From a virus: a stretch of 41,843 bases of DNA. Under the pieces are notes generated by a model. That model saw only the letters and a list, made by a program, of their open reading frames with translations, ran no database searches and was not told the origin of the DNA. This document shows positions 22,812 to 22,900 of this stretch, in pieces. The DNA is taken from the IMG/VR virus record IMGVR_UViG_3300032007_002771. The stretch is one strand, 5' to 3'. How positions within the stretch are numbered: position 1 is the first letter of the stretch; each line of letters starts with the position of its first letter. The position numbers were made by a program, and so were the translations under genes.

Positions 22812-22900
22812 CAGCCCCACTGGGACTCGAACCCAGACATGCACCTTCAGAGGGTTTACGGTTTTAGAGACCGCTGTGCTTACCTTTACACTATGGGGCA
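22812..22900 (-). tRNA. amber-suppressor tRNA(CUA), tRNA-Gln-like with enlarged variable region
   Basis: Reads UGCCCCA-UA-GUGU-AAAGGUAA-GCAC-A-GCGGU-CUCUAAA-ACCGU-[21-nt variable AAACCCUCUGAAGGUGCAUGU]-CUGGG-UUCGAGU-CCCAG-UGGGGCU-G. Acceptor, D-arm, T-arm and discriminator G73 closely match the phage tRNA-Gln(UUG) at 24892-24963. Anticodon CUA reads UAG. Confidence 0.7.

Follow-up and report, generated by a model that had tools for sequence, protein, structure and literature searches.

The virus record IMGVR_UViG_3300032007_002771 in IMG/VR comprises 41,843 nucleotides of DNA with a G+C content of 31% (this whole stretch is referred to below as the window), and on its minus strand, between 18.5 and 31.9 kb, ARAGORN identified an array of 31 tRNA genes. 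Our subject is the sole gene of the window with a CUA anticodon, an amber-suppressor tRNA called by ARAGORN at 22810-22901 on the minus strand (anticodon cta) and matched over its full length by the Rfam model RF00005 (22812-22900, model positions 1-71, 54.5 bits, the gathering score being 29). The variable region of this gene measures 21 nt and folds into a small hairpin, the loop of which holds a second anticodon, that of tRNA-Gln. tRNA(CUA) genes bearing this arm form a large and previously uncharacterised family. The gene is laid out as follows, with the basis of each assignment in brackets (MFE, minimum free energy).

22812-22900, minus strand: amber-suppressor tRNA(CUA), 89 nt, CCA end not encoded (ARAGORN, Rfam, MFE fold).
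22894-22900, minus strand: acceptor stem, 5′ strand UGCCCCA, with U1·U72 as an open first pair followed by G2-C71 and C3-G70 (sequence).
22876-22891, minus strand: D arm GUGU-AAAGGUAA-GCAC, with a 4-bp stem, an 8-nt loop containing GG, and G10.
22858-22874, minus strand: anticodon arm GCGGU-CUCUAAA-ACCGU (ARAGORN and sequence).
22865-22867, minus strand: anticodon CUA, reading UAG, with A37 and A38 next to it (ARAGORN and sequence).
22837-22857, minus strand: variable region of 21 nt, made up of AA, the hairpin and GCAUGU (sequence).
22843-22855, minus strand: pseudo-anticodon hairpin ACC-CUCUGAA-GGU (MFE fold, covariation, RNAalifold).
22848-22850, minus strand: pseudo-anticodon CUG, which is a Gln anticodon (sequence).
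22820-22836, minus strand: T arm CUGGG-UUCGAGU-CCCAG (sequence).
22812-22819, minus strand: acceptor stem, 3′ strand UGGGGCU, and discriminator G73 (sequence).

The 89-nt sequence has the features of a tRNA: the acceptor stem is of 7 bp, GG is present in the D arm, the anticodon loop has U33, and the T arm fits UUCRANY. UA follows the 5′ strand of the acceptor stem and a single A separates the D arm from the anticodon arm, whose canonical 7-nt loop reads C32 U33 C34 U35 A36 A37 A38 (22869-22863); the D arm has class I geometry. The MFE fold is a cloverleaf plus a small extra hairpin within the variable region. An initial annotation, made by inspection of the sequence, had given these coordinates, the CUA anticodon arm and the 21-nt variable region, all of which are borne out by ARAGORN, Rfam and the fold. 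It had proposed ARAGORN on the minus strand as a check, and this returned CUA, while the fold places no other anticodon in the loop. The excess of about 16 nt that it described in the variable region is likewise real, as all 82 distinct phage tRNA-Gln genes in the loci that we fetched have 4-5 nt there. A 100% identical tRNA(CUA) is held by two independent public assemblies (a 99.6-kb ENA contig and a JGI contig), and megablast of 12 kb of the tRNA array against GenBank phages returned no match. The pyrrolysine tRNA (tRNA-Pyl), which is ARAGORN's label for any CUA tRNA, was rejected as an identity: the window tRNA has a 5-bp anticodon stem, a 21-nt variable region, GG in its D loop AAAGGUAA and the T loop UUCGAGU, whereas in tRNA-Pyl the anticodon stem has 6 bp, the variable loop is of 3 nt, the D loop is small and lacks GG, and the T-psi-C consensus is missing.

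The loop of the extra hairpin (CUCUGAA) departs from the anticodon loop of the same molecule (CUCUAAA) by one change, G for A at position 36, and has the sequence of a tRNA-Gln(CUG) anticodon loop. Where the initial annotation saw an insert that makes the tRNA look class II, we find a conserved, covarying hairpin that copies a Gln anticodon loop. The exact 17-mer of the anticodon arm was found in 51 IMG/VR loci, about half of which are clear relatives, and every one of these relatives carries the insert. A pattern scan of IMG/VR returned 59 distinct tRNA(CUA) with long variable regions, nearly all with the arm; the arm is present on more than 60 distinct IMG/VR tRNA(CUA) genes with very different bodies, and its layout (a hairpin with a 7-nt loop and Y-U-G at the positions equivalent to 34-36) recurs in 64 of 74 distinct long-arm tRNA(CUA). 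Most often one nucleotide precedes the hairpin, its stem has 3 bp (range 2-5) and its loop 7 nt, and 6 nt separate it from the T arm, the window tRNA having linkers of 2 nt (AA) and 6 nt (GCAUGU). The loop is CUCUGAA in 20 genes, UUCUGAG in 19, CUUUGAA in 10, CCCUGAA in 5 and UUCUGAA in 4, the rest being singletons, such that the triplet at the 34-36 positions is CUG or, less often, UUG, both of them Gln anticodons, usually with A next. The arm was found on none of the 82 distinct genuine tRNA-Gln genes in the fetched loci.

In an alignment of 32 diverse members, three of three stem pairs covary and are 92-100% paired, with the following composition.

Outermost pair: GC 16, UA 7, AU 4, CG 2.
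Middle pair: CG 24, UA 3, GC 2, UG 1.
Loop-closing pair: CG 29, AU 2, GC 1.

RNAalifold found the hairpin unprompted and left 1:72 unpaired. The U and G of the loop triplet are invariant in 32/32 aligned members, and the acceptor, anticodon and T stems diverge widely among members of the family. This pattern of substitution indicates that the hairpin stem and the loop triplet are under selection. It also bears on the suggestion that the hairpin is a neutral relic, left when the 17-nt anticodon arm of a tRNA-Gln(CUG) was duplicated in tandem, the 5′ copy changing to CUA and the 3′ copy decaying. The insert, at 16-17 nt, does have the length of one anticodon arm, the two loops in the window are a single base apart, and the arm sits at the position of a second tandem copy, with a stretch of normal length (5-6 nt) between it and the T arm. 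However, the stems of the two arms are unrelated (GCGGU/ACCGU and ACC/GGU), so any duplication must be old, and compensatory changes at three pairs, with an invariant U-G, are not what decay would leave in 32 members whose bodies have diverged at nearly all other stem positions. In the tRNA-Ile family described below, moreover, the extra loop CAGAUUA is not a copy of the molecule's own anticodon loop CUUAUAA. We regard a neutral relic as unlikely; duplication of the arm may explain the origin of the hairpin, and leaves its maintenance unexplained.

The association between the CUA anticodon and the loop motif was also found in samples that take no account of the extra loop, one drawn by the anticodon arm alone and the other by a pattern fixing only CUCUAAA and the T loop. 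In these, YUG[A/C] occurs in the variable region of 26/31 long-arm tRNA(CUA), as against 16/229 Ser, Leu and Tyr tRNAs with long variable regions (Fisher p ~5e-20) and 5/36 other sense tRNAs with long variable regions. The tRNA(CUA) without the motif are Ser-like suppressors with GNRA-type loops.

Several further observations concern the loop and its relatives. Loci L027 (149, minus strand) and L039 (7262, plus strand) each have a tRNA(CUA) on another body (GCGGAGU...), with a 5-6-bp variable stem and the loop CUUUGAC, which is the exact anticodon loop of phage tRNA-Gln(UUG); both lie outside the ARAGORN-based tabulations. In L004 (7427, plus strand) a tRNA(CUA)-like sequence has a variable region of about 35 nt with a second hairpin, GCGGA-UGUUAAU-CCGU. 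Two other readings of the conserved loop were tried and rejected, first a hammerhead core (CUGANGA), which few members fit, most having CUGAAGG, and second a Shine-Dalgarno-like element (GAAGGAG), a motif missing from the GGC, GCG and GAU stem variants. Lastly, a scan of bacterial genomes with the loop pattern yielded no tRNA(CUA) by ARAGORN among the matches listed (at least 120, attributable to chance), a result with no bearing on hosts or prophages.

Alignments of the encoded proteins show that TAG is a sense codon for Gln in the window phage and its relatives. With TAG read through, the open reading frames (ORFs) that reach 100 codons sum to 15,905 codons instead of 12,468, and in-frame TAGs lie inside conserved proteins (a sigma factor, a PD-(D/E)XK protein, a radical SAM protein and a methyltransferase). 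The sigma-factor ORF (37045-37905, minus strand) has three, and in its region 2 the TAG of WWVQ[TAG]CLSR is opposite the Q of WWIRQAITR in the three SigA chains with displayed alignments. In the PD-(D/E)XK protein (37993-38697, minus strand), the TAG of LLKI[TAG]IKK is opposite Q in 120/120 homologues, all of them close relatives (72-99% identity), some of which may have been translated with TAG as Gln, such that the argument risks circularity. This is resolved by an 84%-identical homologue without in-frame TAG, the DNA of which reads CAA at the catalytic TAG site. The remaining TAGs of the window fall at variable surface positions, opposite K, E, D, R or L. We also compared the ORFs of related phage loci all against all with TAG read through; in loci with this type of tRNA, Q makes up 94 of the 305 non-TAG residues opposite an in-frame TAG, 11.8 times background, and Ser stands at 0.6 times background. 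The initial annotation had named this tRNA as the decoder of a recoded TAG with insertion of Gln, and the proposal is supported, since it is the only CUA tRNA in the window and the TAG sites align with Q. Biochemical precedent exists for such decoding: in E. coli extract, 28/29 phage tRNA(CUA) insert Gln and 13/13 tRNA(UCA) insert Trp (PMC12636597).

The residue counts have to be set against the idea that the gene is a class II suppressor, in which the long arm and G73 would make the tRNA a substrate of seryl-tRNA synthetase (SerRS), or of the leucyl or tyrosyl enzyme (LeuRS, TyrRS), with TAG then meaning Ser, Leu or Tyr. Bacterial SerRS reads a long variable arm together with G73, without regard to the anticodon, and true Ser-like tRNA(CUA) do occur in other phages (L001, L031, L035). 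Yet Ser is depleted and Gln enriched opposite TAG, and the constrained TAG sites in the window align with Q. The arm itself, with 3 bp, a 7-nt loop and a 6-nt 3′ linker, is unlike the variable arms of the window tRNA-Ser, and the D arm of the suppressor has 4 bp and an 8-nt loop, compared with a 3-bp D stem in the window tRNA-Ser(UGA) and D loops of 8-10 nt in the window Ser tRNAs. We give a class II identity almost no credence. The same tRNA-Ser(UGA) (23201-23289, minus strand) has an anticodon stem, GCGGU/ACCGU, identical to that of the suppressor; the 17-nt CUA arm is found on many unrelated tRNA bodies in IMG/VR as well, and the stem common to the two window tRNAs may be due to chance or convergence.

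The body of the suppressor, by its sequence, is Gln-like, with an open 1:72 pair, G2-C71, G73, G10 and a D arm of class I. Recognition by glutaminyl-tRNA synthetase (GlnRS) depends on a 1:72 pair that can open, on the acceptor stem with its discriminator, on the 10-25 pair and on U35 and G36 of the anticodon, these two nucleotides being major determinants, and activity falls by up to 1e5-fold when identity determinants for GlnRS are mutated (PMC9976931). Among 61 family members, the 1:72 pair is U-A in 22, U·U in 15, A·C in 7 and A-U in 5, with C-G, U·C, G·U and U·G making up the rest and G-C found in none; it is mismatched in 25/61 (41%), compared with 53/1266 (4%) of other tRNAs. G2-C71 is present in 54/61, G73 in 40/61 and G10 in 58/61, and the window tRNA has all three. 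Pair 3:70 is C3-G70 in the window tRNA rather than the G3-C70 of the GlnRS set, the family being split between CG (41) and GC (20). In the real anticodon U35 is kept and G36 is replaced by A36, leaving the U-G-A signature only in the variable-arm loop (22850-22847). The D arm typical of the family, GUGUAAYGGUUARCAC, also has a Gln connection, as 53 of its 85 matches to non-suppressor phage tRNAs are tRNA-Gln.

We compared the suppressor with the other tRNAs of the window. Gapped pairwise alignment was non-discriminating (Thr, Ser and Ile outscored Gln), and structure-matched positions were used instead. Over 42 such positions, with the anticodon arm and variable region excluded, tRNA-Gln(UUG) (24892-24963) agrees at 30/42, tRNA-Ile(UAU) at 29/42 and tRNA-Asn at 28/42. 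The suppressor and tRNA-Gln(UUG) have in common the GCCCC acceptor core and G73, and their T stems are out of register (CUGGG and GCUGG). Of the initial suggestion that the gene is a paralogue of this tRNA-Gln, the Gln-type features of the body stand, whereas 'near-identical' was an overstatement given the narrow lead over tRNA-Ile.

The arrangement is not confined to amber suppressors. A scan for tRNA(UCA) with long variable regions, blind to the loop, returned one true selenocysteine tRNA (tRNA-Sec) and three others, and UCCAA is present in the extra loop of 3/3 of the others. For example, the extra arm of the L456 tRNA(UCA), GCGGG-CUCCAAA-CCCGC, has the exact anticodon loop of tRNA-Trp. A targeted scan extended the set to 15 distinct tRNA(UCA) (in IMG/VR loci L456, L480, L441, L620, L660, L673, L682, L728 and others), with covarying stems of 5-7 bp, the cap (G/C)UCCAAA and mostly Trp-like bodies (A1-U72, G73). 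In another example, AUA-reading tRNA-Ile(UAU) have a variable region of at least 22 nt, mostly with a covarying 4-bp stem and the loop CAGAUUA, which holds GAU, the principal anticodon of Ile. In a sample of loci fetched for other reasons, GAU[A/U]A is present in 9/10 long-arm tRNA-Ile(UAU) compared with 4/339 other long-arm tRNAs (Fisher p = 4e-14); the Ile arms come from L086, L095, L145, L148, L155, L331, L351 and L013, the last with GAUAA in its loop. In the window, the variable loop of tRNA-Ile(UAU) (27785-27859) is normal, at 5 nt, and an ochre scan gave one long-arm tRNA(UUA) with a Ser-like body, which is uninformative. In the Gln, Trp and Ile cases alike, the real anticodon departs from the target of the cognate class I synthetase, with the canonical anticodon present in the extra loop. 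The extra arm taken together with the Trp and Ile families points to a principle of tRNA identity not described in the literature that we searched.

We postulate that the gene is a Gln-inserting amber suppressor of a phage with TAG as Gln, in which the arm acts as a pseudo-anticodon that restores synthetase identity, a reading to which we lean slightly. The change of G36 to A, needed to read UAG, would remove a major synthetase determinant, and the extra arm would present the missing U35-G36-A37 signature to whichever enzyme forms Gln-tRNA, most likely host GlnRS. The open 1:72 pair and G73 would serve the acceptor end at the catalytic site, and the real CUA arm would then decode UAG on the ribosome. 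As to geometry, two arrangements are conceivable, one with the extra arm alongside the anticodon stem and the other with an exchange of the arm that stacks under the D stem; the two arms are about equal in reach, and the usual 1-nt and 6-nt linkers would allow either arrangement. In its general form the proposal would be that anticodons altered from those which the host synthetase reads (CUA for Gln, UCA for Trp, UAU for Ile) are offset by a cognate loop in the variable arm, read by the anticodon-binding domain of the synthetase, and here we see the case as evenly poised.

Alternative stacking would also permit a molecule with two functional anticodons, in which the arm beneath the D stem could be either one, with the CUA conformer reading UAG and the CUG conformer reading CAG. 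The two arms are adjacent and each is canonically placed relative to one neighbour, and L027 and L039 pair an extra stem of 5-6 bp with an exact tRNA-Gln loop. The extra stem is, however, usually of 3 bp, which is less than an anticodon stem needs on the ribosome; the counterpart of U33 in some loops of Gln type is C or G, and in the Ile-type CAGAUUA it is A; and a tRNA-Gln(UUG) is already encoded by the phage. Double decoding is in our judgement very improbable.

A number of points weigh against recognition of the pseudo-anticodon by a synthetase. First, crystal structures have class I enzymes such as GlnRS binding tRNA with the variable region facing away, and a 3-bp hairpin is short, such that recognition needs flexible linkers or alternative stacking; geometry is the weak point of the proposal. 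Second, the arm is not indispensable, as armless Gln-like tRNA(CUA) exist (L076, L104, L124, L127 and others) and E. coli supE works without an arm. Third, variable-region hairpins with unrelated loops (GAAA, for example) are common in phage tRNAs, and in five members of the family the acceptor end, with C1-G72 and U73, is not of the GlnRS type. Fourth, part of the family was gathered by a pattern that demanded the loop motif, the loop-independent samples being those described above. Lastly, the enzymology of the host matters. The phage probably infects a Firmicute, to judge from its sigma factor, which resembles SigA, and from the presence of an LPXTG protein and of a protein rich in repeats that resembles a cell-wall-binding one. 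Many Firmicutes make Gln-tRNA with glutamyl-tRNA synthetase (GluRS) and GatCAB, and the main anticodon determinant there is a modified U34 (PMC9976931). A CUG loop fits the GluRS/GatCAB route poorly and GlnRS better.

These difficulties leave room for a hairpin that is selected without being a synthetase identity element. It could have another partner, such as a modification enzyme specific for tRNA-Gln, tRNA-Trp or tRNA-Ile or a phage protein that times the code switch, or act as a decoy for a host anticodon nuclease; or it could have another role, tuning stability or competition with release factor 1. Covariation and loop conservation show selection and name no partner, the variable region points away from the enzyme in known class I complexes, and the window contains an RNA-repair gene set (described below), as in phages that face tRNA nucleases. 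On the other side, three independent systems carry exactly the anticodon read by the synthetase (CUG/UUG for Gln, CCA for Trp, GAU for Ile), and a single rule, to supply the cognate anticodon, covers all three; we know of no single modification enzyme or nuclease that follows such a rule across Gln, Trp and Ile. Nor was a candidate binding protein found conserved beside the genes in the loci examined, where no systematic search was made. A different partner or role seems to us possible and rather doubtful, and we retain the pseudo-anticodon as the preferred explanation of the arm.

The surroundings of the gene were examined with respect to two further claims of the initial annotation, neither of which fared well. 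The gene had been placed in an operon driven by a sigma70-type promoter (P6); one site matching 10/12 positions lies at 23109-23081 on the minus strand, but the region has 8 hits compared with 9.9 ± 3.3 in shuffled sequence. The insert had also been said to echo those of other tRNA-like genes of the array, but the 18-nt variable hairpin of tRNA-Lys(UUU) has a loop without a cognate anticodon. That gene (19618-19704, minus strand) is 87 nt long and its hairpin reads AAGC-AAAUUA-GCUU; in phage Thr, Trp, Asn, Cys and Met tRNAs, too, variable hairpins with unrelated loops are common, often GAAA. Other tRNA-like sequences of the array are atypical in different ways. A 116-nt one at 21368-21483 (minus strand) has good acceptor, D and T arms and about 45 extra nt near the anticodon; without the intron option it is found by Rfam only (36.9 bits), and with ARAGORN's intron option it is a tRNA-Lys(UUU) with a 34-nt intron. 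Only 19 nt upstream of the suppressor, at 22920-22992 (minus strand), lies a degenerate, very AT-rich tRNA-like gene that ARAGORN calls Tyr(GUA), with an Rfam score of 36.5 bits; its variable loop is short and its D arm weak. The genes for tRNA-Leu(CAA) (30071-30145, minus strand) and tRNA-Leu(UAG) (31224-31297, minus strand) have 5-nt variable loops and class I geometry, unlike the usual bacterial tRNA-Leu, which is of class II.

Outside the array, a block of genes at 2037-8363 (minus strand) is without in-frame TAG save one near the 5′ end of the ORF frame 3650-4444, upstream of the likely start. The block resembles an RNA-repair set, with an RNA ligase (5003-6244, PF09414 and an OB fold), an AAA_33 kinase-like protein (2606-3172) and a metallophosphatase (2037-2639). 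ORFs 3650-4444 and 6320-7138 are metallophosphatase-like by motifs alone, and ORFs 7120-7980 and 7938-8363 have no Pfam hit. Adjoining genes at 13317-17368 (minus strand), also free of TAG, encode a major-vault-protein-like protein (Vault_3 and MVP shoulder, 806 aa) and a DUF2828/DUF7788 protein (511 aa), an unusual pair to find beside a phage tRNA array.

Stop-codon recoding is widespread in gut phages, and how their suppressor tRNAs are charged by anticodon-dependent host enzymes has been named an open question (bioRxiv 10.1101/2021.08.26.457843). An arm with the cognate anticodon would be a concrete and testable answer to it, and the arm is shared by the suppressor families for amber (Gln) and opal (Trp) and by a family of AUA-reading tRNA-Ile. 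If the pseudo-anticodon is indeed read by synthetases, codon reading and amino-acid attachment would be uncoupled within a single natural tRNA, as a general evolved solution to charging and a new class of tRNA identity element. It would also account for the possible failure of tRNA detectors and isotype models to find many phage suppressors or to score them correctly, and would give genetic-code engineers a natural template for uncoupling decoding from charging, engineered attempts at which have so far had modest success (PMC7590224). Should the arm have another role, it would still be a strongly selected feature of a large tRNA family for which our literature searches returned no description.

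Phage tRNA(CUA) genes and the recoding of TAG to Gln are already well described. Those of code-15 phages (crAss-like, Lak, Jade, Sapphire, Agate, phAss-1 and others) likewise lie in a tRNA array of a low-GC phage with in-frame TAG genes, insert Gln at TAG and have a Gln-type body; they were published as ordinary tRNAs typed by the isotype models of tRNAscan-SE, whereas here we describe an extra arm with a Gln anticodon. The literature that we searched, with incomplete coverage that makes an earlier description possible, has no mention of a variable-arm hairpin or loop in a phage suppressor tRNA. The classical E. coli suppressor supE (tRNA-Gln2, CUG to CUA; PMC9976931 and general knowledge) shares with the window tRNA the weak 1:72 pair, G73, G2-C71, G10, U35 and A36 in place of G36. 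It differs in having a short, normal variable loop and in tolerating the loss of G36, whereas the window tRNA has a U1·U72 mismatch, C3-G70 for G3-C70 and a second loop with U-G-A. The class II tRNAs (bacterial Ser, Leu and Tyr) and tRNA-Sec likewise have a paired extra arm before the T arm, which EF-Tu and the ribosome tolerate. In a class II arm the stem is longer, with 2 nt on its 5′ side and about 3 nt on its 3′ side, and the loop is short and does not copy an anticodon; in the phage family, in contrast, the linkers are typically of 1 and 6 nt, the stem is of 3 bp, the loop of 7 nt resembles that of an anticodon arm, and the D arm is of class I type.

For a natural variable arm with a pseudo-anticodon, we found no example in the literature searched, the only precedent being engineered. 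In the work of Mukai (2020), GUG was built as a pseudo-anticodon into an engineered suppressor, at its variable arm, which modestly increased histidylation by a histidyl-tRNA synthetase (HisRS) with an added anticodon-binding domain, and mutating the pseudo-anticodon lowered activity (PMC7590224). The principle is the same, the cognate anticodon arm being copied to the tip of the variable arm of an amber suppressor; that design used a synthetic allo-tRNA chassis and needed the HisRS fusion, whereas the phage design is natural, widespread and would need to work with unmodified host enzymes. Anticodon-like loops in mRNA, in the E. coli thrS operator (PMC9976931) and in yeast mRNAs for aminoacyl-tRNA synthetases (PMC6542539), are likewise read by the anticodon-binding domain of a synthetase. 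Those loops are regulatory elements of an mRNA, whereas the pseudo-anticodon described here lies within the tRNA that is itself to be charged.

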